This document shows positions 1 through 52,072 of a DNA stretch of 64,000 nucleotides, one piece after another (positions within the stretch are counted from its first letter, which is position 1; every line of letters begins with the position of its first letter). Position numbers and translations under genes: made by a program. Below the pieces are notes generated by a model that saw nothing but the letters and a program-made list of their open reading frames with translations, did no database searches and was not told the DNA's origin. The DNA comes from an uncultured Thermoleophilia bacterium (GTDB lineage Bacteria > Actinomycetota > Thermoleophilia > Gaiellales > Gaiellaceae), in assembly GCA_963762715.1 (NCBI GenBank), contig CAVXLT010000005.1, forward strand, positions 148,020 through 212,019, written 5' to 3'.

Positions 1-822
1 AACTTCGAGGCGAACCAGCGTCTCTGGCTCGCCCTCGCCCGGGAGGAGGCGGCGCCCCTCGCCGACGCCCTCCGCGACACGGCCGAGATCCCGGGCGCCG
101 ACCAGTGGGGGACGTTCCTGCGAAACAACGACGAGCTCGATCTCGGCCGGCTGTCGGACGATGACCGGCGCCTCGTGTTCCGGAAGTTCGCGCCGTCGCA
201 ACGCATGCAGCTGTACGGCCGTGGGATCCGGCGGCGGCTCGCCCCCATGCTCGGCGGCGACCGCCGGCGGGTCGAGCTGGCGTTCGCTCTCCTGCTCTCC
301 CTGCCGGGCACGCCGGTCCTCTACTACGGCGACGAGATCGGCATGGGTGAGGACCTGTCGCTTCGGGAGCGCGACTCGGTGCGCACGCCCATGCAGTGGT
401 CGAGCGGGCCGAACGGCGGGTTCTCCGCGGCGCCGCGCCGGCAGTGCGCGCTGCCCGTCCTCTCCCGCGGCGCCTACGGGTTCCGGCAGGTGAACGTCGC
501 CGACCAGCACCGGGACACGAGCTCGCTCCTGCATTTCGTCCGACGCGCGGTACGTGCGCGGCGAGAGCTGCGCGGCCTCGGCTCCGCCGCATGGGAGCAG
601 GTTCGGGTGCGGGAGCCGGCCGTGTTCGCCCTCCGCTACCGCCGCGACGACACGGAGCTACTCGCCGTGCACAACCTCGCGCGCACCCCCGTCCGCGTGC
701 GCGGCCTCGACGCGGAAGGGCTCGCCGATGCCTTTGCGAATCGCGACTACCCGACGCCCGGCAGGACCGTCGAGCTCGATGGCTTCGGCTTTCGCTGGCT
801 GCACGCGCCCGAAGCGTTCTGA
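1..822 (+). CDS. GH13 alpha-amylase family protein, trehalose synthase (TreS)-like, C-terminal part; 5' end lies outside window
   Basis: Frame 1 is open from base 1 to TGA 820-822. Translation has FLRNNDELDLGRL, GIRRRLAPMLGGDRRR and SLPGTPVLYYGDEIGMGED...VRTPMQW, motifs I recognise from TreS/GH13 enzymes. Strong GC3 bias. Confidence 0.8.
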   Translation, partial: NFEANQRLWLALAREEAAPLADALRDTAEIPGADQWGTFLRNNDELDLGRLSDDDRRLVFRKFAPSQRMQLYGRGIRRRLAPMLGGDRRRVELAFALLLSLPGTPVLYYGDEIGMGEDLSLRERDSVRTPMQWSSGPNGGFSAAPRRQCALPVLSRGAYGFRQVNVADQHRDTSSLLHFVRRAVRARRELRGLGSAAWEQVRVREPAVFALRYRRDDTELLAVHNLARTPVRVRGLDAEGLADAFANRDYPTPGRTVELDGFGFRWLHAPEAF

Positions 823-1862: not shown

Positions 1863-2477
1863 TCAGGCTGCGAGCTGCTCGAACGCGCGCCGGAAGACGT
1901 CGAGCGGCTGGGCGCCGAGGAGGATCAGCCGCCGGTCGAGCAGGAATGCCGGGATCGCGTTGATCCCGATCGACTGCGCCTGCGCCGTCGAGCCGTGCAC
2001 GACGTCCAGGTACGCCGACGGGTCGGCGATCACGTGCTCCACGTCCTCAGCCTCGAGCCCGACCTCCGCGGCGAGCCGCCGCAGCTCGTCCCGGTCACCG
2101 AGGTTCGTCGCCTCCGACCAGTACGCCTGCATCAGCCGGTCGTGAAACGGCTCGTGTAGCCCGTGCTCGCGCGCGAGCTCCGTCAGCCGCAGCGCGAGCT
2201 TCGTGTTCGGCACGGTCTCGGGGCGCTCGTAGACCAGCCCCGCCGCTTCGAAGCGGTCGCGCAGCGGGTCACGCTGCCCCGCCGAGAGCCCGTAACGGCG
2301 GTGGAGCTCGGCGAGCGGGATCCCCTCCTCCGGGTACTCCGGGTGCAGGTCGAACGGGAGCCAGGTCACCTCGGCGTCGAACTCGCGCCGCGCCTCCTCG
2401 GCCGTCACCTGGCCGAGCCGGCACCACGGTCAGAGGTAGTCGCTCCAGACGAGAATCGTGTGCTCCGCCACGGCCAC
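1863..2477 (-). CDS. DsbA/FrnE-like thiol:disulfide oxidoreductase with in-frame TGA (2430-2432) at the first Cys of CxxC; candidate selenoprotein, or a nonsense-disrupted gene
   Basis: ORF 1863..2408 is a DsbA-like body without an active site. The same frame upstream reads VAVAEHTILVWSDYL-TGA-PWCRLGQ, i.e. WSDxx[C->TGA]PWC. Possible GTG starts at 2477 or 2471. Confidence 0.6.
2397..2417 (-). promoter_or_regulatory. SECIS-like mRNA hairpin downstream of the in-frame UGA of the DsbA-like gene
   Basis: mRNA CUCGGCC-AGGUGAC-GGCCGAG: perfect 7-bp stem beginning 12 nt after the UGA, with GGU in the apical loop. Confidence 0.4.
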
Positions 2478-4853
2478 ATGTTCCCACGCGTCCCGTTCCT
2501 GTGCGAGGCTGCGCATCGGGTGGGCACAGGGGTTCGCGGAGTGGCAGCGAGGTTCGTCGCAGCGGCGGCGGTCGCCGCGCTTGCGCTCGGGGCGGCGGGA
2601 ACCGCCGCCCGTCCGGCCGCGGCGGGGTGCGCGCAACGCGGCGTGTCGTCGAGCTACGCCGGAGCGGTGGCGGGAGCCGCCGCCGCCGGGCGCGACCTCT
2701 GGGGCGGCGCGCTCGTGCGCAGAGCCGGCGGCCCGACGTACGAGGCCGCCCGCCGCTATCTGGCACCGCTCACGCAGGCGCTCCGGCGCGGCCCCCGGCC
2801 GCTCACGGCGAGCGGCTCGTACTACGTGCCGCTCTCGTATCCGTTCACGTCGTACGGCTCGCCGATGTACGCGCTCCACGTGGCCGACGGAAGCGAGATC
2901 GTCACCCGCCGTGTCGGCGGGCCCTCGCTGAAGCTCTTCGTCGGCGAGCTCGGCAAGGAGGCGTACGGCTCCTGTACCTCGCGGCTGCGGCCGGCGCGGC
3001 TCGCGCAGGGGTACCTGCCGATCCTGCAGACCACGTACGAGGACTCCGGCGGAGTTCGGTACGTACAGGAGTCGTTCGTCGGGCGCGCCTACGGCGCCTT
3101 CGGCGCGCGGTCGACGATCAGCTTCGTGCGGCTCGTCGTCGACGCGCGGCAAGCCTCGCGCGGCGCGCGGGTGCGGCTCGCTCCCTGGCGGCGGCTCGCG
3201 CACTCGGCGCCCGACCGACTCGCCCTCGACGGGCAGACGCGGCTGATCGTGAGCGACGGCGCGCAGTTCGTCGACGGCGTCGCCCGCTACCACGTACCGC
3301 AGGGGGAGAAGGAGACGATCTACGCCGAATGGCTGAACGCACCGTCGGACGCCGGCCACGTCCACGCCGACGCCGAGACCTACGACGCCGCGCGCGCGAC
3401 CGTCGTCAACTTCTGGCAGTCGCGGCTCGACGCGGGCGCGACGTTCTCGGTCCCGGAAGCCGCGACGCAGAACGCAGAGCTCGGCGTGCTCACCCAGCTG
3501 ATCTCCTTCGGCTGGCGCTACAGCGTCGGCAACCAGTACGAGGAGCTGTCGTACGCCGAGTCGCTCGACGCCGCCGAGGTCGCCGTCGAGTACGGCTACC
3601 CCTCCGTCGCCAGGTCGATCGTCGAGCTCGCGCTCCGCCGGATCCGGGCGGACCGGGCGGCGTTTCGCGCGTTCCGGGGCGGCCACCTCCTCGCGACTGC
3701 GGCGCTGTACGTGAGGTCGACCCGCGACCGCGCGTTCCTGCGGGCCGCGACACCGGCGCTCGCGGACGTCGTCGCGCGCATCGCCGCGCGGCAGCAGCGG
3801 ACCGGCAAGCTGCGCGGGCGGCTGATCCCGGAGGCGCTCTCCACCGACCTCGAGAACCAGGCTGTCGACAGCGTCCCCGGGCAGCTCGAGGCGATCGAGG
3901 GGCTGCGGGCGATCAGCCGCGTCTGGAGCGCCGCGGGCGTCCGGTCGCAGGCGGCCCGCGCAGCGGTGCTCGCGACGTCGATCGACCGGGCGGTGCGGCC
4001 GGCGCTCGCGCACGTCTCCCGGCGCCTGCACGACGGGACGCTGTTCGTCCCCGACCGGCTCACCGGCCAGAAGCCGTTCGGGCGGCTGACGGCCTCGCGC
4101 GACGGCTCCTACTGGAACCTGATGATGCCGTACGCGTTCTCGTCGGGGTGGTTCGCGCCGCACACGGCCGTGGCGCGCGGGATCCTCCGCTACCTCCTGC
4201 GGCACGGCTCCCGGCTCCTCGGCGTCACGCGCACCTATGCGGGCACCGTCTACGGCGACAAGGGAGGCGCCGGCATCGCGCCCGTCTACGGGCTCGGGAT
4301 GTCGCGCTTCTTCGCCGACAACGACCAGCCCGACCAGCTCGACCTGAGCCTGTACGGGATGCTCGCGACCGGGATGACCCAGGGCACGTACGTCTCGGGC
4401 GAGGCGGTGTCGTTGTTGCCGGTCGGCAGCGCGTCCGGGCGGGCGATGTTCATGCCGCCGAACGCCGGCGCGAACGCCTCGTACCTCGGCACCCTGCGGG
4501 AGCTGCTGGTGCACGAGCGCCGCGGCCCCCTCGGAGCCCCCGCCGGCCTCGACCTCGCCTTCTCGACGCCCCGTGCCTGGCTCGCCGACGGCCGGTCGAT
4601 CGAGGTGAGAGACGCGCCGACCAGCTTCGGCAAGCTCTCGTACTCGATCACCCGGAGCGGGTCGAGCGTGGTCGCACGGCTCGTCCTCCCGCGCACCGGC
4701 GACGTGCGGCTGCGGCTCCGCCTTCCCGCGGGCGAGAGGCTCACCCGGGTGCTCGTGGGCTCGAGCTCCGTCGCCCCGGGCGCCGCCGGGACGATCGACC
4801 TCGGCGCTCGGCACGGCACGCTCCTCGTGCGCGCCGCCGTCGGCGCGGGCTGA
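2478..4853 (+). CDS. large secreted or lipoprotein of unknown function (possibly glycoside-hydrolase-like)
   Basis: Long GC3-biased ORF. N-terminus VGTGVRGVAARFVAAAAVAALALGAAGTAARPAAAGC looks like a signal peptide with a lipobox-like AAGC. Start uncertain (ATG 2478 or GTG 2520). I do not recognise a family motif. Confidence 0.65.
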   Translation: MFPRVPFLCEAAHRVGTGVRGVAARFVAAAAVAALALGAAGTAARPAAAGCAQRGVSSSYAGAVAGAAAAGRDLWGGALVRRAGGPTYEAARRYLAPLTQALRRGPRPLTASGSYYVPLSYPFTSYGSPMYALHVADGSEIVTRRVGGPSLKLFVGELGKEAYGSCTSRLRPARLAQGYLPILQTTYEDSGGVRYVQESFVGRAYGAFGARSTISFVRLVVDARQASRGARVRLAPWRRLAHSAPDRLALDGQTRLIVSDGAQFVDGVARYHVPQGEKETIYAEWLNAPSDAGHVHADAETYDAARATVVNFWQSRLDAGATFSVPEAATQNAELGVLTQLISFGWRYSVGNQYEELSYAESLDAAEVAVEYGYPSVARSIVELALRRIRADRAAFRAFRGGHLLATAALYVRSTRDRAFLRAATPALADVVARIAARQQRTGKLRGRLIPEALSTDLENQAVDSVPGQLEAIEGLRAISRVWSAAGVRSQAARAAVLATSIDRAVRPALAHVSRRLHDGTLFVPDRLTGQKPFGRLTASRDGSYWNLMMPYAFSSGWFAPHTAVARGILRYLLRHGSRLLGVTRTYAGTVYGDKGGAGIAPVYGLGMSRFFADNDQPDQLDLSLYGMLATGMTQGTYVSGEAVSLLPVGSASGRAMFMPPNAGANASYLGTLRELLVHERRGPLGAPAGLDLAFSTPRAWLADGRSIEVRDAPTSFGKLSYSITRSGSSVVARLVLPRTGDVRLRLRLPAGERLTRVLVGSSSVAPGAAGTIDLGARHGTLLVRAAVGAG

Positions 4854-6399: not shown

Positions 6400-6565
6400 A
6401 GGCTTGATGCGCATTTGTGGGCATACGCGGCTGGTGCGCCTGACACGGCGCGGCTCGGCCGCGTCGGGCTTGCCCGTAGCCACCGCTACGCGCTGCGCCC
6501 GCCCCGCCCGATCCGCTCGGTCAGGCGCATCCCCGCGCACACCCCAATACACATCAAGCCTCTAG
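6396..6565. repeat. about 170-bp imperfect palindromic element (MITE-like or structured RNA)
   Basis: Perfect 14-bp inverted termini CTAGAGGCTTGATG (6396-6409) and CATCAAGCCTCTAG (6552-6565). Nested inner inverted repeats include GTGCGCCTGAC / GTCAGGCGCAT. The left end overlaps the gabT stop. Confidence 0.55.
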
Positions 6566-6570
6566 AGCCC

Positions 6571-7549
6571 GTGGCGGCGAGCGTCGACGTCGAGGGCATT
6601 CGAAAGACCTACGGCGAGGTCACGGCCGTCGCCGGCGTCGACCTGCACGTCGGCGAGAACGAGTTCTTCACGCTGCTCGGCCCCTCGGGGTCCGGCAAGA
6701 CGACCACGCTGCGCGTGATCGCCGGCTTCGAGCGGCCCGACGCGGGGCGCGTGATGCTGGGCGGCGAGGACATCACGCTGCGGCCGCCGTACTCGCGCGA
6801 CGTCAACACCGTGTTCCAGGACTACGCCCTCTTCCCGCACATGACCGTCGCCGACAACGTCGGCTACGGGTTGAAGGTGCGGCGGGTCGCCCGCACGGAG
6901 CGGCGGCAGCAGGTCGACGAGGTGCTGCGCATGGTCCGCCTCGACGGCTACGGGGACCGCAAGCCGATCCAGCTCTCCGGCGGGCAGCGGCAGCGTGTCG
7001 CGCTCGCGCGCGCGATCGTCAACCGCCCGAAGGTGCTGCTGCTCGACGAGCCGCTCGGCGCGCTCGACCTGAAGCTCCGGCAGGAGATGCAGGTGTTCCT
7101 GAAGTCGCTCCAGCGCGAGCTCGGCATGACGTTCGTCTACGTCACGCACGACCAGGAGGAGGCGCTGACGATGAGCGACCACGTCGCCGTGTTCAACGGC
7201 GGCCGGATCGAGCAGGTCGGGTCGCCGACCGAGGTGTACGAGCGCCCGGCGACCGCGTTCGTCGCCGGCTTCGTGGGCACCTCGAACATCCTCGAGCGCG
7301 GCGGGCGGCGCTTCTCGGTGCGGCCCGAGCGCATCCAGCTGAACGGTTCCGGCGAGCCGGGGACGGTCGCCGACGTGATCTTCGTCGGCTCCTTCATCCG
7401 GATTCTCGTCGACACGGACTCCGGCGACCGGCTCGACGGTCGTCCGGGCGAACGACGGCCCCCACGTCGAACGAGGGGCCCGCGTCCACGTCGCCTGGCG
7501 CGACGAGGACGCATACGAGATCGCATCCACCGAGCAGGAGGGCAGATGA
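6571..7549 (+). pseudogene. spermidine/putrescine ABC transporter ATPase (PotA-like), one apparent frameshift near 7430
   Basis: Walker A GPSGSGKTT, LSGGQRQRVALARA and LLLDEPLGALD. After ...DTDSGDRL the homologous C-terminus (VVRANDGPHVERGARVHVAWRDEDAYEI...GR-stop) continues in another frame and ends in an ATGA overlap with the next gene. Confidence 0.85.
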
Positions 7550-8661
7550 GCAAGAGCACGTGGGCAGTGGTCGCGGTGCTCGCGGCCGCACTCGCGTTTC
7601 CCGCAGCGGGCGTCACGAAGGCGCACGGCGGGACGCTGAACATGATCGCGTGGGAGGGCTACCTCCAGAAGCAATGGGTGCAGCCGTTCGTGAAGTCGAC
7701 GGGCTGCACGATCCACCCGAAGTACGCCGGCTCGTCCGACGAGATGGTGACGCTGATGCGCAGCGGCGGCGGCGGCCAGTACGACCTGGTCTCCGCCTCG
7801 GGCGACGCGTCGCTCCGCCTGATCTACGGCAAGGACGTGCAGGCGGTCGATCCGGCGAAGGTGCCCGACTTCAAGAACTTCGGCAAGGCGTTCCGGTCGC
7901 CGCCGAACAACACGGTCGGCGGGAAGCACTACGGCATCTCGCTGCAGTGGGGCCCGAACACCCTGATGTACAACACGAAGCAGGTGAAGCCCGCCCCGAC
8001 GTCGTGGGCGTCGATCTACTCGACGAAGTACAAGGGCAAGATCACCGTCCCCGACAACCCGATCCAGATCGCCGACGCGGCGCTCTACCTGATGAAGCAC
8101 CAGCGCTCGCTCGGGATCAAGGACCCGTACGAGCTGAACCCGAAGCAGTTCGGTGCCGCGATCAACCTGCTGAAGAAGCAGAAGCCGCTGATCAAGAAGT
8201 ACTGGGCGCTCGCCTCGGACGAGATCGACCTGTTCAAGAACGGTGACGCCGTGATCGGCGCGTCGTGGCCGTACCAGACGAACACGCTGATCGGCGCGAA
8301 GGCGCCGGTGAAGGACACGGTGCCGAAGGAGGGAGCGACGGGCTGGCTCGACACGTGGATGGTGTCGTCGAAGACGAAGAACCTCGACTGCGCCTACAAG
8401 TGGCTCGCCTACGTCTCGACCCCGAAGGTGCAGGCCGAGCAGGCGATCTACTTCGGCGAGACCCCCGTCAACAGCAAGGCCTGCAAGATCATGAACACCC
8501 TCTCCAAGGGCTCGTGCGCGCAGTACCACGCGAACGCGCCGCTCAAGTACTTCAAGCAGATCTACTTCTGGAAGACGCCGATCGCCGACTGCGGCAACGG
8601 CAAGAAGGACTGCATGGACTACACGAAGTGGCAGCAGGCCTGGACTCAGCTGAAGGGCTAG
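7546..8661 (+). CDS. spermidine/putrescine-binding periplasmic protein (PotD/PotF-like)
   Basis: Signal peptide MSKSTWAVVAVLAAALAFPAAG followed by a typical PotD-like body (IAWEGY, YDLVSASGD, WGPNTLMYN). Intact frame. Confidence 0.88.
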   Translation: MSKSTWAVVAVLAAALAFPAAGVTKAHGGTLNMIAWEGYLQKQWVQPFVKSTGCTIHPKYAGSSDEMVTLMRSGGGGQYDLVSASGDASLRLIYGKDVQAVDPAKVPDFKNFGKAFRSPPNNTVGGKHYGISLQWGPNTLMYNTKQVKPAPTSWASIYSTKYKGKITVPDNPIQIADAALYLMKHQRSLGIKDPYELNPKQFGAAINLLKKQKPLIKKYWALASDEIDLFKNGDAVIGASWPYQTNTLIGAKAPVKDTVPKEGATGWLDTWMVSSKTKNLDCAYKWLAYVSTPKVQAEQAIYFGETPVNSKACKIMNTLSKGSCAQYHANAPLKYFKQIYFWKTPIADCGNGKKDCMDYTKWQQAWTQLKG

Positions 8662-18642: not shown

Positions 18643-18665
18643 ACTCGATCCCGTAACGTCACGCC

Positions 18666-20030
18666 GTGGAATTCGACGTGATCGTGGTCGGAGCCGGCCC
18701 GGCCGGTGAGGTCTGCGCCGGACGGCTGGCCGAGGCAGGTCTCGAGGTGGCGGTCGTCGAGAGCCGGCTGGTGGGCGGCGAATGCTCGTTCTACGCCTGC
18801 ATGCCGTCGAAGGCGCTGCTGCGCCCGGGCGAAGCGCTCGACGAGGTCGCCCGCATCCCGGGAGCGGCCGAAGCGGTCACCGGCCGGCTCGACGTCGAGG
18901 CGGTGCTGCGGCGCCGCGACGAGGTGGTGCACGGGCTCGACGACTCCGAGCAGCTGCCGTGGCTCGAGCAGCGAGGCGTCCGCGTGCTGCGCGGGCACGC
19001 GCGGCTGGACGGCGAGCGCCGCGTGTCGGTGGACGGCGAGCCCCACACCGCCCGCCGTGCGGTCGTGATCGCGACGGGCAGCGAGCCGCTCGTGCCGCCC
19101 GTCCCCGGGCTCGTCGAGGCACACGGCTGGACGAACCGCGAGGGCACGGTCTCGAGCACGGTGCCGGGCCGCCTGCTCGTGCTCGGCGGCGGGGTCGTCG
19201 GAGTCGAGCTCGGCCAGGCCTGGTCGTCGCTCGGTTCCGAGGTGGCGATCGTGGAGGCAGGGCCGCGCCTCCTCGCCCGGGAGGAGGAGTTCGCGGCGCG
19301 GCTGGTGCACGAGTCGCTCGAGCGGCGCGGGGTCGAGATCCACACCGGTTCACCCGCCGTGCGCGTGGCCCGCGACGCCGCGGGCGTGACGCTGACCCTC
19401 GACTCGGGCGCCGAGCTCCACGGGGACGAGATCCTCGTCGGCGTCGGGCGCCGCCCGGCGACCGGGGAGCTGGGGCTCGAGACCGTCGGCCTCGAGCCGG
19501 GACGGCCGATCGCGGTCGACAGCCACCTGCGCTCGCAGGCGGGCGACTGGCTGTACGCGATCGGCGACGCAAACGGGCGCGTGCTGCTCACCCACATGGG
19601 CAAGTACCAGGGCCGGATCGCGGCCGACGCGATCCTGGGCAAGGAGGCCTCGATCGACCCGCTGAGCGACGGCCCGCTGTCGCCGCGGGTGATCTTCACG
19701 GATCCGCAGATCGCCGCGGTCGGACATACGCTGGCCTCGGCCGGCGAGGCGGGGATCGACGCCCGGGCGGTCGACTACGGCACCTCCGACGTCGCGGGCG
19801 GCAGCTTCTACGGGCGGGGTGCGCCCGGGATCTCCCGGCTCGTCGTCGACGAGCGGCGGCGCGTGCTCGCGGGCGCCACCTTCTGCGGCGCCGAGGTGGC
19901 CGAGTTCGTGCACGCGGCGACGATCGCCGTCGTCGGCGAGGTGCCGCTGCAGCGGCTCTGGCACGCCGTGCCGTCGTTCCCGACGCGCAGCGAGGTGTGG
20001 CTGCGCCTGCTCGAGACCTACGGCCTGTAG
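18666..20030 (+). CDS. FAD-dependent pyridine nucleotide-disulfide oxidoreductase
   Basis: FDVIVVGAGPAGE, redox-active GGECSFYACMPSK, second GxGxxG LLVLGGGVVGVE, AIGDANG. Confidence 0.88.
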   Translation: MEFDVIVVGAGPAGEVCAGRLAEAGLEVAVVESRLVGGECSFYACMPSKALLRPGEALDEVARIPGAAEAVTGRLDVEAVLRRRDEVVHGLDDSEQLPWLEQRGVRVLRGHARLDGERRVSVDGEPHTARRAVVIATGSEPLVPPVPGLVEAHGWTNREGTVSSTVPGRLLVLGGGVVGVELGQAWSSLGSEVAIVEAGPRLLAREEEFAARLVHESLERRGVEIHTGSPAVRVARDAAGVTLTLDSGAELHGDEILVGVGRRPATGELGLETVGLEPGRPIAVDSHLRSQAGDWLYAIGDANGRVLLTHMGKYQGRIAADAILGKEASIDPLSDGPLSPRVIFTDPQIAAVGHTLASAGEAGIDARAVDYGTSDVAGGSFYGRGAPGISRLVVDERRRVLAGATFCGAEVAEFVHAATIAVVGEVPLQRLWHAVPSFPTRSEVWLRLLETYGL

Positions 20031-21133: not shown

Positions 21134-21866
21134 TCAGCCCGAGTGAGCGAGCGGCGCCGCCTGTAGCTCCCGCTCGATCGCCTGCTCGAGCTCGTGCGGC
21201 TTGAACCCGAACGGCCCTTCGCCGCCCTGATAGGCGATGCGTCCGTCCGCGCCGACGAGGTAGAGGCGGTCCGGCCAGCCGCCGTAGGCGGAGGCGACGG
21301 CGTTGTCGAGCTCGTCGACCACGGCGGGCATCGTCAGCTCCAGCCTGGCGGCGCAGGTGGAGGCGACCGCGTGCCGCTCGGCCGCCGTCACGCGGCTCCC
21401 GCACGGCGATCCCGGAGCGACGGTTCTCGGGGATGATCCAGCCGTCCTCGGGATGCGCCTCGCGGATGTAGACGGCCAGGAAGTGCACGCGGTCGCCGTA
21501 CCGCACGGCCAGATTCTCCAGCGTCCCAACCTGGGCGCGGAACGGTGGTCAGGTGTAGGAGCCGAAGACGAGCGCCACCGGCCGCTCGGCGACGAGCGAG
21601 CCGAGGCACAGCATGCCGGCGCCGTCGAGCCGTGCGAGCTCGAAGTCGGGCGCGGGGTCGCCGACCACGACCTTCGCCGTCATCAGGTTCCGGTAGTCCT
21701 CGCTCGCGAGCACGTCCTGCATCGTCAGCGGCGAGTCGTCCGGCGCCCCGCCCCGGCCGTGGCGGAGCTGCGAGACGAGCATGCCGGGAACCGACCAGCG
21801 CGGGTCGACAGGGCTGCCGCGCGAGACGGTCCGCATGTAGGCGAGGATGTCGCGCGGCGAGGGCAC
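21134..21866 (-). pseudogene. iodothyronine-deiodinase-like thioredoxin-fold protein with in-frame TGA (21549-21551) at the Sec position, plus one apparent frameshift (~21392)
   Basis: ORF 21549..21866 ends ...VALVFGSYT-TGA. The same frame continues PPFRAQVGTLENLAVRYGDRVHFLAVYIREAHPEDGW, so the motif is FGSxT-U-PPF. The C-terminal DELDNAVASAYGGWPDRLYLVGADGRIAYQGGEGPFGF lies in the frame of ORF 21134..21529. Confidence 0.6.
21517..21541 (-). promoter_or_regulatory. SECIS-like mRNA hairpin downstream of the in-frame UGA of the deiodinase-like gene
   Basis: mRNA UCCGCGCCC-AGGUU-GGGaCGCuGGA: 9 bp with two single-nt bulges, starting 7 nt after the UGA. The loop GGU sits about 21-23 nt after the UGA. 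Confidence 0.4.
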
Positions 21867-26850: not shown

Positions 26851-28896
26851 TCAGGCCGGGACGGCCTCGTGCTCCTTCCGCGCCTGCTCGATCAGCTTCT
26901 GGGCGATGTGCGCAGGCACCTCCTCGTAGCGGAGGAACTGCATGTGGTAGTCGCCGCGACCGCCCGTCAGCGAGACGAGCGCCTGGTTGTAGGTCAGCAC
27001 CTCGGCCATCGGCACCTCGGCCTTGATCGTCGTCGCGCCGCCCTTCGGCTCCATGCCGAGCAGCCGGCCGCGACGCGAGTTGAGGTCGCCGTTGATCGCC
27101 CCGACCGAATCGTCGGGCACCGTGACCTCGAGCTCCATCACCGGCTCGAGCAGCGCGGGCTGCGCCTTCTCGTACGCCGAGCGGAACGCCATCGAGCCGG
27201 CGATCTTGAAGGCCATCTCGGAGGAGTCGACCGAGTGGTAGCTGCCGTCGACGAGCTTCACGCGCACCCCCTGCACCGGGGCACCGGCGAGCTCCCCGTG
27301 CTGCATCGCCTCCTGGATCCCCTTGTCGACCGCGGGGCGGAAGCCCTGCGGGATCACCCCGCCGACGATCTTGTCGACGAACTCGTAGCCCACGTGGTCG
27401 TCGAGGGGCTCGAGCTCGATGTGACAGTCGCCGAACTGGCCGCGGCCGCCGGTCTGCTTCTTGTAGCGGCCCTGCGCACGGGCGGAGCCCTTGATCGTCT
27501 CGACGTAGGGCACCCGCGGCTGGTGCAGCTCCATCTCGACGCCGAACCGCCGTCGCGCGCGCTCGACGGCGACCTCGACGTGCACCTGGCTCATCCCCGA
27601 GAGCAGCTCCTCCCCGGTCCGCTGGTCGCGCGAGACGTGCAGGGTCGGATCCTCCTCGGACAGCCGCCGCAGCGCCTGCACGACCTTGTCCTCGTCGCCC
27701 TTCGTCTTCGCCGTCACGGCGAAGCTCATCACCGGCTCCGCGAAGCCGAGCGGCGGCGGGTCGAGGTCGTGCTCGGAGTCGACGAGCACGTCGCCGGTCT
27801 GCACGTCCTTCAGCTTCGCGACGGCGCCGAGGTCGCCGGCGCCGAAGCCGTCGGCCTTCTCGTGCTCCTTGCCCTCCAGCGTCATCAGCGACCCGAGCCG
27901 CTCCTTCGAATGGTCGCGATGGTTGACGAGCGTCGTGTCCGAGCGCACCTCGCCCGCGTAGACGCGGAAGACGGAGATGCGGCCGGCGAACGGGTCGGCG
28001 ACCGTCTTGAAGACGAAGGCCGCGACGCTGGCGTCGGTTTCGATCGGGGAGCCCTTCTTCGCGGGGCTCGGCACGCCCTCGACGAGCAGGTCGAGCAGCG
28101 CGTGCGTCCCCAGATTCTTCGTCGCCACGCCGCAGGAGACCGGGTAGATCTCGTCGCGCGTGACCGCGTTCTTGAGGGCGGCGGCGATGTCCTCGGCGGG
28201 AATCTCCTCGCCGCCGAGGTACCGCTCCATCAGCTCCTCGTCGGTCTCGACGACCGCGTCGAGCAGCTTCGTCCGGTACTCGGCGACGAGCTCGGCCAGC
28301 TCGCCCGGGATCTCGACCGGGTCGCCCTCCCGCTCGCCGCCCGGATCCAGGTAGGCGCAGTTGTGCAGGAGGTCGACCACGCCGCGCAGCTCGTGCTCCG
28401 CCCCGATCGGCAGCTGGATCGCGATGCAGCGGTCGGACAGCTGCTCCTGGATCGCGGCGAGCGTCCGGTAGAAGTCGGCCCGCTCGCGGTCGAGCATGTT
28501 GACGACGACGACCCGCGAGAGCTCGAGCTCCTCCGCGCGCTCCCACACGCGGGAGGTGTTGACCTCGACGCCCATCACGCCCGAGACGACGACGAGCGCC
28601 CCTTCGACCACGCGCAACGACGCGACGGTGTCTGCCTGGAAGCCGGTGTCGCCGGGGGTGTCGATCAGGTTGATCTTCCGCCCCTGCCACTCGCAGTTCG
28701 CGAGCGACGCCGAGAGCGACATCTGCCGCCGCTGCTCCTCCTCGTCCCAGTCGGTGACGGTGGTCCCTGCCTCGACGGTGCCCAGCCGGTTCGTCTTTCC
28801 CGCCTGGAAGAGCATCGCTTCGACGAGCGAGGTCTTGCCCGTTCCGCGGTGGCCGACGACAGCGACGTTGCGGATCTTCCCGGCTTCGATGGGCAT
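26851..28896 (-). CDS. elongation factor G paralog (EF-G2-like GTPase)
   Basis: 681 aa. IRNVAVVGHRGTGKTSLVEAML, INLIDTPGDTGF and full EF-G domain order. Divergent G1 motif compared with canonical AHIDAGKTT. Confidence 0.88.
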   Translation of the reverse strand: MPIEAGKIRNVAVVGHRGTGKTSLVEAMLFQAGKTNRLGTVEAGTTVTDWDEEEQRRQMSLSASLANCEWQGRKINLIDTPGDTGFQADTVASLRVVEGALVVVSGVMGVEVNTSRVWERAEELELSRVVVVNMLDRERADFYRTLAAIQEQLSDRCIAIQLPIGAEHELRGVVDLLHNCAYLDPGGEREGDPVEIPGELAELVAEYRTKLLDAVVETDEELMERYLGGEEIPAEDIAAALKNAVTRDEIYPVSCGVATKNLGTHALLDLLVEGVPSPAKKGSPIETDASVAAFVFKTVADPFAGRISVFRVYAGEVRSDTTLVNHRDHSKERLGSLMTLEGKEHEKADGFGAGDLGAVAKLKDVQTGDVLVDSEHDLDPPPLGFAEPVMSFAVTAKTKGDEDKVVQALRRLSEEDPTLHVSRDQRTGEELLSGMSQVHVEVAVERARRRFGVEMELHQPRVPYVETIKGSARAQGRYKKQTGGRGQFGDCHIELEPLDDHVGYEFVDKIVGGVIPQGFRPAVDKGIQEAMQHGELAGAPVQGVRVKLVDGSYHSVDSSEMAFKIAGSMAFRSAYEKAQPALLEPVMELEVTVPDDSVGAINGDLNSRRGRLLGMEPKGGATTIKAEVPMAEVLTYNQALVSLTGGRGDYHMQFLRYEEVPAHIAQKLIEQARKEHEAVPA

Positions 28897-28935
28897 CGAG
28901 TCCTCCTCGGCGAGCTGACGGTTCCGACCGAAATC

Positions 28936-45457: not shown

Positions 45458-47603
45458 ATGATGGCGCGCATGGAACGCCGGCGCATCCGGGTGGTGGGCG
45501 TGGTGCAGGGCGTGGGTTTCCGCCCGTTCGTCTACGGCCTTGCCCGGAGGCAGAACCTCGCCGGCTGGGTGCTGAACGACGGCGAGGGAGTACTGCTCGA
45601 GGCCGAGGGCGAGCCGCGCGCGCTCGACGAGCTCGTGCGCGCGCTCCGGGAGGAGGCGCCGCCGCTCGCGCGCGTCGACGGCGTCGACTGGCAGGGGACG
45701 CAGCCGCTCGGAGAGACGTCCTTCGAGATCCGGCTGAGCGCCCCCACCGGCGGCACGGCGCTGATCCCGGCGGACGTCGCCACCTGCGACGACTGCCTTC
45801 GCGAGCTGTTCGACCCGGCCGACCGTCGCTTCCGGTACCCGTTCACGAACTGCACGCAGTGCGGCCCGCGCTTCACGATCGTGCGCGGCGTCCCCTACGA
45901 CCGGGCGCTGACGACGATGGCCGACTTCCCGCTCTGCGCCGACTGCCGGCGCGAGTACGAGGACCCGCTCGACCGCCGCTTCCACGCCGAGCCGGTCTGC
46001 TGCCCCGTCTGCGGGCCACGGCTCTCGCTACCGCTCGAGCGCGCCGTCTCGCTGCTCGCCGACGGGACGCATCGTCGCCGTCAAGGGGCTCGGCGGCTAC
46101 CACCTCGCCTGCGACGCAGCCGACGAGGACGCGGTCGCACGGCTGCGCGCGCGGAAGGTGCGTGAGGACAAACCGTTCGCGCTGATGAGCGCGACCCCCG
46201 AGCTGCTCGTGGAGCTCGACGCCGGCGAGGACGCGCTGCTCCGCTCGCGCGAGCGCCCGGTCGTGCTCGCGCGGCGCCGCACCGGTGCGCCCGTCGCTCC
46301 CTCGGTCGCACCCGGCACCGCCTGGCTCGGGGTGATGCTCCCCTACACCCCGCTCCACCATCTGCTGCTGCACGACTTCGGCGGCGCGCTCGTGATGACG
46401 AGCGGCAACCGCTCCGACGAGCCCATCGCCTTCGACGACGGCGAGGCACGCTCGCGTCTCGCCGGCATCGCCGACGCGTTCCTGGCGCACGACCGCCCGA
46501 TCCACCGCCGCTGCGAGGACTCCGTCGTCCGCGCCGACTTTCCCGTGCGCCGCTCCCGCGGCTTCGCGCCGGGCGCGGTCGCGCTCCCCGTCGCGGCGCG
46601 ACGACCGATCGTCGCCGCGGGCGCCGAGCTGAAGTCGACGTTCTGCGTCGCACGCGGCACCGACGCGTTCCTCTCGCCGCACCTCGGCGACCTCGACTCC
46701 GAGGAGGCCTACACGGCCTACCGCACCGATCTCGCGCTGTACCTCGAGATGCTCGGCGTCCGGCCCGAGGTGGTGGCGCACGACCTGCATCCCGAGTACC
46801 TCGCGACCAAGTGGGCAGTCGAGCAGGACGCCGAGCTCGTCGGCGTCCAGCACCACCACGCGCACGCGGCCGCCTGCCTCGCCGAGCACGGAGAGGGCGG
46901 GCCGGCGCTGGCACTCGTCTTCGACGGGACCGGCTTCGGCACCGACGGCACGCTCTGGGGCGGCGAGCTCCTCCGCTGCGACCTGACCGACTTCGAGCGG
47001 CTCGCCCACCTGGTGCCGGTGCCGCTGCCGGGCGGCGAGGCGGCGATCCGCCAGCCGTGGCGCACCGCTGCCTCCTATCTCGAGGCCGCCGGGCGCCCCG
47101 TGCCGTGGGCGCGCTGGGACGCGGTGCGGGCGAGCCTGCGGGCGAACGCGCCGCTCTCCTCCGGGATGGGCCGCCTCTTCGATGCGGTCTCCGCGCTGCT
47201 GGGCGTGCGGGAAGAGGTGAGCTACGAGGGGCAGGCGGCGATCGAGCTCGAGCAGCTGGCCGAGGGCGTGACGACCGAGCCGTGGCCGTGGCGGTTCGGC
47301 GACGGCCCGGCGCTCGTCGCGACCGTGCACGACGAGCTGGCGGCCGGACGAACCAGGCCGGAGCTCGCCGCCGCCTTCCACGAGACGGTCGCCGCGGCGG
47401 CCGCGGCCGCCTGCGCGGCCGAAGGCGACGGCACGGTCGTGCTCTCGGGCGGCAGCTTCCAGAACCTGCGCCTGCTCGCCTCGACCCGCGCTCGGCTCGA
47501 GGCGCACGGCAAGCGTGTGCTGTCGCACCGGGTGGTGCCGCCGAACGACGGCGGCGTCAGCTACGGGCAGGCGGCGGTCGCCGCGGCCCGCACTACGCGG
47601 TGA
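45458..47603 (+). pseudogene. hypF: [NiFe]-hydrogenase maturation carbamoyltransferase HypF, apparent frameshift ~46067
   Basis: Acylphosphatase domain VQGVGFRPFVY, two Zn-finger pairs (CDDCLRE...CTQCGPRF; CADCRRE...CPVCGPRL), YrdC-like VKGLGGYHLACDA, and Kae1-like C-terminus. Confidence 0.85.
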
Positions 47604-50845: not shown

Positions 50846-51249
50846 GCGTGCTGGTCGGGCTCGGTCAACATCCTCACCATGCTCAACGCGCAAACGAGCG
50901 CAATCGTGAGATCGTTCCCGAGGCACCACTGGCAGACGGCGCCGATCGGCCCGAGCTGCGCCCACAGCAGGTAGCCGCTGAAGGCGACGCCGACGAGCGC
51001 CAGCAGCACGCACGCGAACGCCCAGAGGAGGCCCGTGCGAAGCGTCGTCAGCAGGATCGCCGCGTAGGCGGCCAGGCCGAGCGTGGCGACCGGGATGCCG
51101 GCAAGGGTGGCGTAGGAGGAGTGCTGCACCTTCTCGCAGCCACCGGTCGTGCAGACCGGTGCGATGTGGGCGTAGTGCACGTAGGTGAGGTACGCCGCGA
51201 TCCCGCCGCCCACGACTGCGAGCGCCGCGATCGTCGCGCGCAGCCTCAC
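50842..51249 (-). CDS. vitamin K epoxide reductase (VKOR) family protein
   Basis: CTTGGCEKVQHSSYA...GIPVA..G and the AVCQWC motif. GTGA overlap with the upstream DsbA gene. Confidence 0.8.
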   Translation of the reverse strand: MRLRATIAALAVVGGGIAAYLTYVHYAHIAPVCTTGGCEKVQHSSYATLAGIPVATLGLAAYAAILLTTLRTGLLWAFACVLLALVGVAFSGYLLWAQLGPIGAVCQWCLGNDLTIALVCALSMVRMLTEPDQHA

Positions 51250-52046
51250 TGGAGCGCGTTGCGCAGGGCGGCCGAGAACGTGGCGGCGTCGAGCGAAGGC
51301 ACGCTCAGCTGCACCGGCCGGGCAAGTTGCTTCTGCAGGATGAAGGTGGGCGAGCCGTTGACGCCCCACGCGGACGACTGCTGCTCGACCTTCTTCCACA
51401 TGTTGAGGATCTTCTGGGTGGGGATCGCGTCGACGACGAGCTGCGGGCTCGCGCCGGCCTCCTTCGCCGAGGCGCGGATGACGGCGTCGGAGATCCAGCC
51501 CGAGTTCTCGGAGCCCTGACGCTCGAAGAGCGCCTCGAGCATGTTCCAGGCCTTGTTCTGGAGCGACGCGGCGTAGACGGCGCGGATCCCGGGCTGGGAG
51601 AGCTGGCCGATGATCTCGACCGGCTGCAGCTCGAGCCTGACGCGCCCGGTGCGCACGAACTCGCGAACGACGGTCGGCAGCGCGCCGAGATCCCAGTCGC
51701 GGCAGTACGGGCACTGCGGGTCCTCGAAGACGTAGAGCGTTGCCGGGGCGGCGACGTTCCCGAGCCGCAGCCCCTTCTGGGGCACACCCTTGAAGATGCC
51801 CTCGCCGGTCACCACGGTCGTGCCGGTACCGGTCTTGCGTGTGGCCGACGTCGTCGTGGCGGCGCTCTTGCCGCCGGTGCCGACGAAGGCGAGGACGACG
51901 CCGACGCAACCCGCGGCGACGAGCACCGCGACGCCGAGCAGGATCAGACGCTGCCTGTTCACCCCTCCAGCATGCCGAAACCGCCGGAGCCCACCGTCGG
52001 GAATCTGCCGCAGGCCCGATTGCCGCGGAACGAAGCGACCTGCCAC
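51246..52046 (-). CDS. DsbA-family thioredoxin-fold protein (CPYC), membrane-anchored/secreted
   Basis: [12 protein letters not shown] active site and a TM anchor [21 protein letters not shown]. The start may be GTG 51962 rather than ATG 52046. Confidence 0.85.
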
Positions 52047-52072
52047 CCGGAACCGTCGTTAGGGTCCGCGCA

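Follow-up and report, generated by a model that had tools for sequence, protein, structure and literature searches.

The DNA analysed here, hereafter the window, is a 64,000-nucleotide (nt) stretch from an uncultured Gaiellaceae bacterium of the class Thermoleophilia (assembly GCA_963762715.1, contig CAVXLT010000005.1), and a gene on its minus strand, at 2471..1863, is very probably a genuine selenoprotein gene. Its predicted product is an oxidoreductase of the DsbA family in which selenocysteine (Sec, U), specified by an in-frame TGA, would stand in place of the first, nucleophilic cysteine of the redox motif. Such a gene had been proposed in an initial annotation made from the DNA letters alone, and translation of the minus strand reproduced the reading frame, the TGA at 2432..2430 and the surrounding motif as they were described there. 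The features of the gene are given below with the evidence used for each; labels beginning with L denote individual loci that were compared with the window.

1863..2471, minus strand: predicted complete coding sequence for the selenoprotein; 202 residues and a stop codon, Sec being residue 14 (translation, Pfam DSBA match across the TGA, homologues)
2469..2471, minus strand: predicted start codon GTG, M1 (start position in homologues, L082, L083, third-position G+C)
2430..2432, minus strand: in-frame TGA, putative Sec (U14) at the nucleophilic position of U-P-W-C (alignment to FrnE and SCO1869, conservation, L081)
2421..2423, minus strand: TGC for Cys17, the putative resolving residue of UxxC and the sole Cys (invariant in 78/78 homologues)
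2397..2417, minus strand: hairpin CUCGGCC-AGGUGAC-GGCCGAG, resembling a Sec insertion sequence (SECIS) (folding, bacterial SECIS model, homologues)
1950..1952, minus strand: Pro174 in G-I-N-A-I-P-A-F (aligned with the G-V-P-F-F loop of FrnE and SCO1869)
1863..1865, minus strand: true stop, likewise TGA (translation)

The minus-strand frame reads H-V(GTG 2477)-A-V(GTG 2471)-A-E-H-T-I-L-V-W-S-D-Y-L-[TGA 2432..2430]-P-W-C-R-L-G-Q-V-T-A-E-E and ends at TGA 1865..1863. The open reading frame (ORF) listed for this place, 1863..2408, has its GTG start (2408) within the loop of the hairpin and encodes, as had been stated, a DsbA/FrnE-like body without an active site. When the TGA was translated as Cys, the read-through protein matched profile positions 1-190/191 of the Pfam family DSBA (PF01323) with its residues 7-199, at E = 2.2e-29. 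Since this match extends across the TGA, the TGA interrupts one complete domain. The best sequence matches in the PDB were SCO1869 (3GL5; E = 5.6e-27) and Deinococcus radiodurans FrnE (5CNW; E = 1e-24, full length). The motif WSDIACPWC of FrnE and SCO1869 aligned on WSDYL-U-PWC, with the TGA falling on the first Cys of CPWC in both proteins, and their G-V-P-F-F aligned on A-I-P-A-F. Pro174 within the latter was invariant in a 32-sequence alignment and may be the cis-Pro of the loop typical of thioredoxin-fold proteins.

Structural modelling lent weak support. The AlphaFold2 model had a predicted local distance difference test score of 65.6, with residues 1-20 below 50, and the N-terminus was poorly modelled because the database homologues lack it. 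When this modest model was searched with Foldseek, FrnE and SCO1869 ranked first at a template modelling score of ~0.6, followed by cytosolic DsbA-like proteins (HCCA isomerase, kappa-class GST and DsbM); periplasmic DsbA scored far lower. The 202-residue protein has 13 residues before its active site, C17 as its only Cys and no evident signal peptide or membrane anchor, although no predictor of signal peptides was applied. Among the NCBIfam models none recognises the family; the sole match was to a model for an unrelated seleno-lipoprotein and fell well short of that model's cut-off. Judged by sequence, the protein is a minimal cytoplasmic FrnE-type oxidoreductase of the DsbA family (COG2761/cd03024) with U14-P-W-C17 as its predicted redox pair. 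The window also encodes, at 51249..52058 on the minus strand, a conventional anchored Cys-type DsbA (Thioredoxin_4/DSBA, motif FEDPQCPYC), and the Sec protein is therefore not the exported disulfide oxidase of the cell.

The conservation of the TGA was examined in homologous loci, one genome per species, retrieved with patterns that could not favour TGA and one of which required Cys. The scan yielded 80 loci, every one of them in metagenome-assembled genomes (MAGs) of the Gaiellaceae, Gaiellales or Thermoleophilia, and 78 of these loci include the Sec site. TGA was present at the Sec codon in 76 of these 78 species genomes, at protein identities of 43-82%, and the motif WSDY(I/T/L)-TGA-P(F/Y/W)-C was kept on both sides of the TGA in the 76 loci. 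The other two genomes had Cys codons, TGT in L063 and TGC in L071, which bears out the proposal that TGA stands in for the motif's first Cys. Two further observations were made in these loci: L079 carries a second, fragmentary WSDYI-TGA-PFC N-terminus ~4 kb from the intact gene (~6143 and ~10028 on one MAG contig), and identical gene copies occur on L064 and L065, which are contigs from a single MAG.

We explored the possibility that the TGA is a sequencing or assembly error for TGC or TGT, as the contig comes from a long-read metagenome assembly. The same window does contain an apparent 1-nt frameshift near 21390, in a deiodinase-like gene described below. However, an independent short-read assembly (Logan, run ERR11571143; L081) was 100% identical over 1280 nt, TGA included, and the 76 genomes with TGA were assembled independently in many projects. 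In addition, ~115 of the 120 best protein-database homologues (181 aa, 78-96% identity, 89% query coverage) were cut by gene callers at the same point. The closest relative, L082, with ~95% nucleotide identity and the same gene order, kept both the TGA and the hairpin. It is thus extremely unlikely that the TGA is an artefact. A reassigned genetic code is excluded, since 23 of the 42 confident ORFs of the window, among them the selenoprotein gene itself, terminate in TGA, which is the commonest stop there; any recoding must therefore depend on context.

The position of the start codon was examined next to that of the TGA. In 62 of the 76 TGA homologues, ATG or GTG precedes the TGA by exactly 13 codons, and ~40 of the 76 have an in-frame stop 14-23 codons 5' of the TGA. 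Two start candidates had been put forward, GTG 2477 and GTG 2471; the former did not hold, as L082 has GTC at that position, while the latter is retained as GTG in L082 and occupies the preferred position of the family. In L083, where a sense codon replaces the TGA, the gene caller begins at the codon equivalent to GTG 2471. Third-position G+C was 0.92 in codons 2-13, from GTG 2471 to the TGA, and the coding pattern faded farther upstream. The 12 codons between start and TGA showed 27 synonymous differences against 40 that were mostly conservative. By these comparisons, the start is GTG 2471 and the gene is 2471..1863. The minus-strand ORF 2430..4814 (794 codons), which ends at the Sec TGA, was considered as an upstream extension and rejected: its G+C by codon position (0.94/0.56/0.72) is the mirror image of that of a plus-strand gene, and the ORF is therefore an antisense shadow rather than a real gene. 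The ORF that casts this shadow lies on the plus strand at ~2556..4853 (~765 aa), divergent from the selenoprotein gene; it shows a strong coding signal, with a third-position G+C of 0.92, and an Ala-rich, signal-peptide-like N-terminus, and it gave no Pfam match. A promoter and terminator scan found nothing.

These observations bear on whether the TGA might be a genuine stop, with the locus holding a pseudogene or a truncated DsbA-like protein expressed from GTG 2408, possibly accompanied by a 13-codon upstream ORF. Gene callers report the 181-aa product in nearly all close homologues, TGA is a normal stop in this genome, and no Sec machinery was seen in the window or the related loci. However, strand beta-1 and the redox motif in its entirety would be missing from such a product. 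The 13 upstream codons specify the conserved WSDY half of the active site, and 76 species retain them, together with a conserved start at -13. Nor would a nonsense mutation persist at one codon across lineages that are 43-82% identical. The initial annotation had left room for translation that starts only at GTG 2408, but this codon is not conserved: many homologues, L005-L009 among them, carry CAG, CGC or a different non-start codon there. We therefore consider termination at the TGA very unlikely and retain the reading of the TGA as a Sec codon.

The hairpin described in the initial annotation is present 12 nt after the UGA. It has a 7-bp stem and a 7-nt loop with G at loop position 2, an energy of -14 kcal/mol and a UGA-to-loop spacing of 19 nt. 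The bacterial SECIS (bSECIS) model calls for a loop of 3-9 nt on a stem of 4 bp or more, a G within the first two loop positions, a spacing of 16-37 nt and a minimum free energy of -7.5 kcal/mol or lower (PMC13188914). The window hairpin lies within all of these bounds, as do 52 of 69 distinct family sequences. In 76/76 TGA genes, a hairpin of 6-10 bp begins 10-13 nt after the UGA, with energies of -10 to -19 kcal/mol. Across these genes the stem occurs in two registers and as no fewer than three sequence solutions (CUCGGCC/GGCCGAG, GUCGGCC/GGCCGAC and CGUCGCCC/GGGCGACG), and some stem changes alter the peptide on both arms jointly, such as Leu-to-Val with Glu-to-Asp.

The stability of this hairpin was compared with that expected from the encoded peptide. 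For 58 distinct sequences, the same peptides were resampled with the codon usage of the family. The observed fold had a mean of -14.5 kcal/mol, compared with -9.9 kcal/mol for the synonymous resamplings, and 58/58 sequences were more stable than their own resampled mean, although the sequences are related and do not amount to 58 independent trials. A positional scan of 75 distinct genes in 30-nt windows placed the most stable site of the gene 9-12 nt after the UGA, where the means were -15.4 and -14.2 kcal/mol, compared with a gene-wide value of -7.9 kcal/mol (standard deviation of position means 2.05). The two Cys homologues, L063 and L071, folded more weakly at the hairpin site (-7.0 and -11.0 kcal/mol). 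The 71-nt region of the window folded alone gave z = -1.5, which is unexceptional for DNA of 72% G+C. The comparative results are stronger than this single fold and indicate that the hairpin is under selection.

A second hairpin, CGGCGCGAGUUCGACGCCG, was observed downstream of the SECIS-like one at 2390..2372 on the minus strand. Its loop lies ~47 nt from the UGA, beyond the usual bSECIS range. In the scan of 75 genes, the windows 30-39 nt after the UGA formed the second most stable region, at about -14 kcal/mol compared with the gene-wide -7.9 kcal/mol. This second hairpin may be an aid to recoding or a mere reflection of the conserved R-R-(E/R)-F-(D/G)-A peptide.

Several observations weigh against a selenoprotein gene with a functional SECIS at this locus. 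In 17 of the 69 distinct sequences, the hairpin either lacks G in the first two loop positions or has a short upper stem. Covariation in a fixed register was weak, with 81% of cells paired and double changes in only 2 pairs/7 cells, and RNAalifold on the 76 aligned sequences gave no consensus beyond a trivial 3-bp structure; both results arise because the stem shifts register between subgroups. The hairpin also sits within the coding sequence of a genome with 72% G+C, and part of its stability comes from the peptide, as the resampled mean is already -9.9 kcal/mol. The Sec position itself can change, since L083 (JGI metagenome 3300047099, positions 654..656) has GGA for Gly at this site. Its hairpin is unchanged despite the Gly, and it is the sole full-length gene model among the 120 best matches; the GGA may reflect an error of sequencing or an allele that lost its function recently. 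Finally, the 64 kb window yielded no selA, selB, selD or tRNA-Sec, and selA, selB, selC and selD were absent from 1.35 Mb of related loci, a small sample in which little would be expected.

The search for Sec-decoding genes covered tRNAs as well as proteins. The only tRNAs that ARAGORN and Rfam identified in the window were tRNA-Gly and tRNA-Trp. Motif scans for SelB, SelD and SelA gave no match there or in the 80 loci, and Pfam searches of 18 further large window ORFs revealed no sel genes. The ORF 26854..28935, which resembles an elongation factor and was considered as a SelB candidate, was rejected as Pfam identified it as EF-G. Cultured members of the Thermoleophilia (Solirubrobacter, Patulibacter and Conexibacter Iso977N) carry SelD, SelA and SelB (PMC5029168 Table S1), which lends indirect support to Sec decoding in the organism of the window, as does a second gene with an in-frame UGA.

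The window was also reported to contain a second gene with UGA at a redox motif, and this too was found. A deiodinase-like gene lies at ~21836..21137 on the minus strand, with the motif FGSYT-TGA-PPF and its TGA at 21551..21549. It matched Pfam T4_deiodinase at E = 5.1e-34 once U was written as Cys and a frameshift repaired, and its UGA is followed by a CCCA-GGU-UGGG hairpin. The pattern of database truncation is the same as for the DsbA-like gene: most homologues of the protein are fragments of 110-127 aa that begin after the TGA. One close homologue is named as a Gaiellaceae deiodinase-like protein. The window copy shifts frame after ...GIAVREPR (near 21395..21388) and the close relative P0129 is in a single frame; the shift is probably a 1-nt indel error of the assembly, or else a recent inactivation. 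A scan of the related loci for other genes with UGA at a redox motif found nothing convincing. About 1.5 kb from the deiodinase-like gene, the plus-strand ORF 18657..20027 encodes a pyridine-nucleotide disulfide oxidoreductase with a dimerisation domain, of the glutathione/mycothione-reductase or lipoamide-dehydrogenase type, which is a possible supplier of reductant for thiol and selenol enzymes.

It is conceivable that the UGA is read through without Sec, by near-cognate Trp or Cys decoding or by another form of recoding stimulated by the hairpin, to yield a W/C-P-W-C protein. The data demonstrate the conservation of the UGA and of the hairpin, not the identity of the inserted residue. In three JGI models of the deiodinase-like gene, the Sec site is rendered as W, most likely as a result of the translation table used. 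However, the UGA lies exactly on the nucleophilic Cys of CxxC, and the alternatives seen there are Cys in two genomes and one Gly; the pairing of Cys with Sec is the signature by which selenoproteins are defined (PMC13188914). Spacing, loop size and loop G of the hairpin agree with the bSECIS model, and Sec forms of this protein family are already known. Moreover, Trp at U14 would abolish the redox chemistry. We regard readthrough without Sec as quite unlikely, and Sec as the residue that is inserted at this codon in all probability.

We propose that translation would start at GTG 2471 and that, at UGA 2432..2430, the hairpin at 2417..2397 would act as a bSECIS. It would recruit the SelB-GTP-Sec-tRNA(Sec) complex, so that Sec would be inserted in place of termination. 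This SelB-dependent insertion is what we infer from the arrangement of codon and hairpin. In the folded protein, the selenolate of U14 at the N-terminus of the active-site helix is predicted to attack substrate disulfides or other oxidised thiols, C17 would resolve the mixed selenenylsulfide, and the oxidised U-C pair would be reduced again by a cellular reductant. A role as a reductase or isomerase is suggested by homology to FrnE. The protein ends at residue 202 without the C-terminal CxxxxC tail that is the regeneration element of FrnE, and its recycling route must therefore differ from that of FrnE.

A broader interpretation is more speculative, and we offer it tentatively as one that may well prove incorrect. 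Sec could be essentially fixed in a cytoplasmic FrnE-type oxidoreductase across the entire order Gaiellales (76 of 78 species genomes), abundant Actinomycetota of soil that are mostly aerobic, where it would serve a selenium-dependent housekeeping of thiol redox state, with a SelB that accepts an unusually plastic SECIS. The plasticity in this interpretation would comprise three stem registers, departure from the loop rule in a quarter of the sequences, and possibly help from the second hairpin 30-40 nt on.

The surroundings of the gene were examined for functional clues. Its neighbours, an aldo/keto reductase and an alpha-amylase, are shared only with the very close relatives L082 and L083 and not with the 80 species-level loci; the gene context therefore yields no functional clue. 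Elsewhere in the window, 6403..8658 on the plus strand is one frame of 752 codons in which the ATPase of an ABC transporter (ABC_tran and TOBE_2) is joined to a periplasmic solute-binding domain (SBP_bac_8/6/1). The L082 counterpart is a 616-aa gene with the same domain mix, and the window frame is an unusual fusion or else the product of an assembly error that ran two genes together. The plus-strand ORF 45912..47600 encodes a HypF-type carbamoyltransferase of [NiFe]-hydrogenase maturation, which suggests a hydrogenase cluster nearby.

The gene is a limited addition to the known DsbA-like selenoproteins. What is new is its lineage, the near-fixation of Sec, the very early position of the Sec codon and the gene models that missed it. 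It leaves knowledge of the mechanism of Sec decoding unchanged. It does extend the use of Sec beyond formate dehydrogenase to the Gaiellales, a widespread order of soil actinobacteria. The best database clusters (~115 of 120), together with most clusters of the deiodinase-like protein, are recorded as N-terminally truncated fragments without the active site, and a curated family model would repair many of these gene calls. The Cys forms in L063 and L071 and the Sec forms in the rest constitute a natural Sec/Cys pair for studying the retention of Sec in a disulfide oxidoreductase.

DsbA-like UxxC selenoproteins are, as the initial annotation stated, a known class. Members of COG2761 were reported from the Sargasso Sea metagenome in 2005 (PMC1088965), DsbA-like selenoproteins were later found in Deltaproteobacteria and Clostridia (PMC1794560), and a 2026 review has the entry 'DsbA-like protein form 1, PF01323, UxxC' (PMC13188914). 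The window protein shares with this family the same Pfam and COG2761 assignment, Sec as the first residue of UxxC and a SECIS directly downstream within the coding sequence. Its probable assignment to 'DsbA-like protein form 1' (e.g. NIP15863.1, AACY01178397) is made by the shared PF01323/COG2761 and UxxC motif. In contrast to the members described so far, the host here is a soil member of the Gaiellales (Actinomycetota), and our literature search found no paper that links Gaiellales or Thermoleophilia to a DsbA-like selenoprotein. Sec is also near-fixed here, in 76 of 78 species, although widespread Cys forms have been described for the family. When compared to the bSECIS consensus (bSECISearch; E. 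coli fdhF/fdnG type), the hairpin has the same stem-loop after the UGA and a loop with G followed by G/U (AGGU here), but about a quarter of the family hairpins deviate in the loop-G rule or in the length of the upper stem, and the register varies.

Among Cys proteins, Streptomyces coelicolor SCO1869 (3GL5), a putative DsbA oxidoreductase of the same phylum, has its CPWC at the same position; it is a Cys protein of 239 aa whose function is uncharacterised. The D. radiodurans FrnE (DR_0659; 5CNW/5CP1) is homologous over its full length at ~33% identity and likewise has WSDxxCPWC near its N-terminus, no signal peptide and a G-(V/I)-P loop. FrnE is a cytoplasmic disulfide reductase/isomerase that is induced by cadmium, radiation and desiccation (PMC8945050). 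It uses Cys22 and Cys25 where the window protein would use Sec14 and Cys17, and its tail, 239-CxxxxC-244, has been implicated in active-site regeneration (PMC8945050). Such a tail occurs in many members of the subfamily but not in every one. The FrnE proteins of S. roseofulvus and D. maricopensis are without the CxxxxC tail as well (PMC8945050), and the missing tail therefore does not exclude the window protein from the FrnE subfamily.

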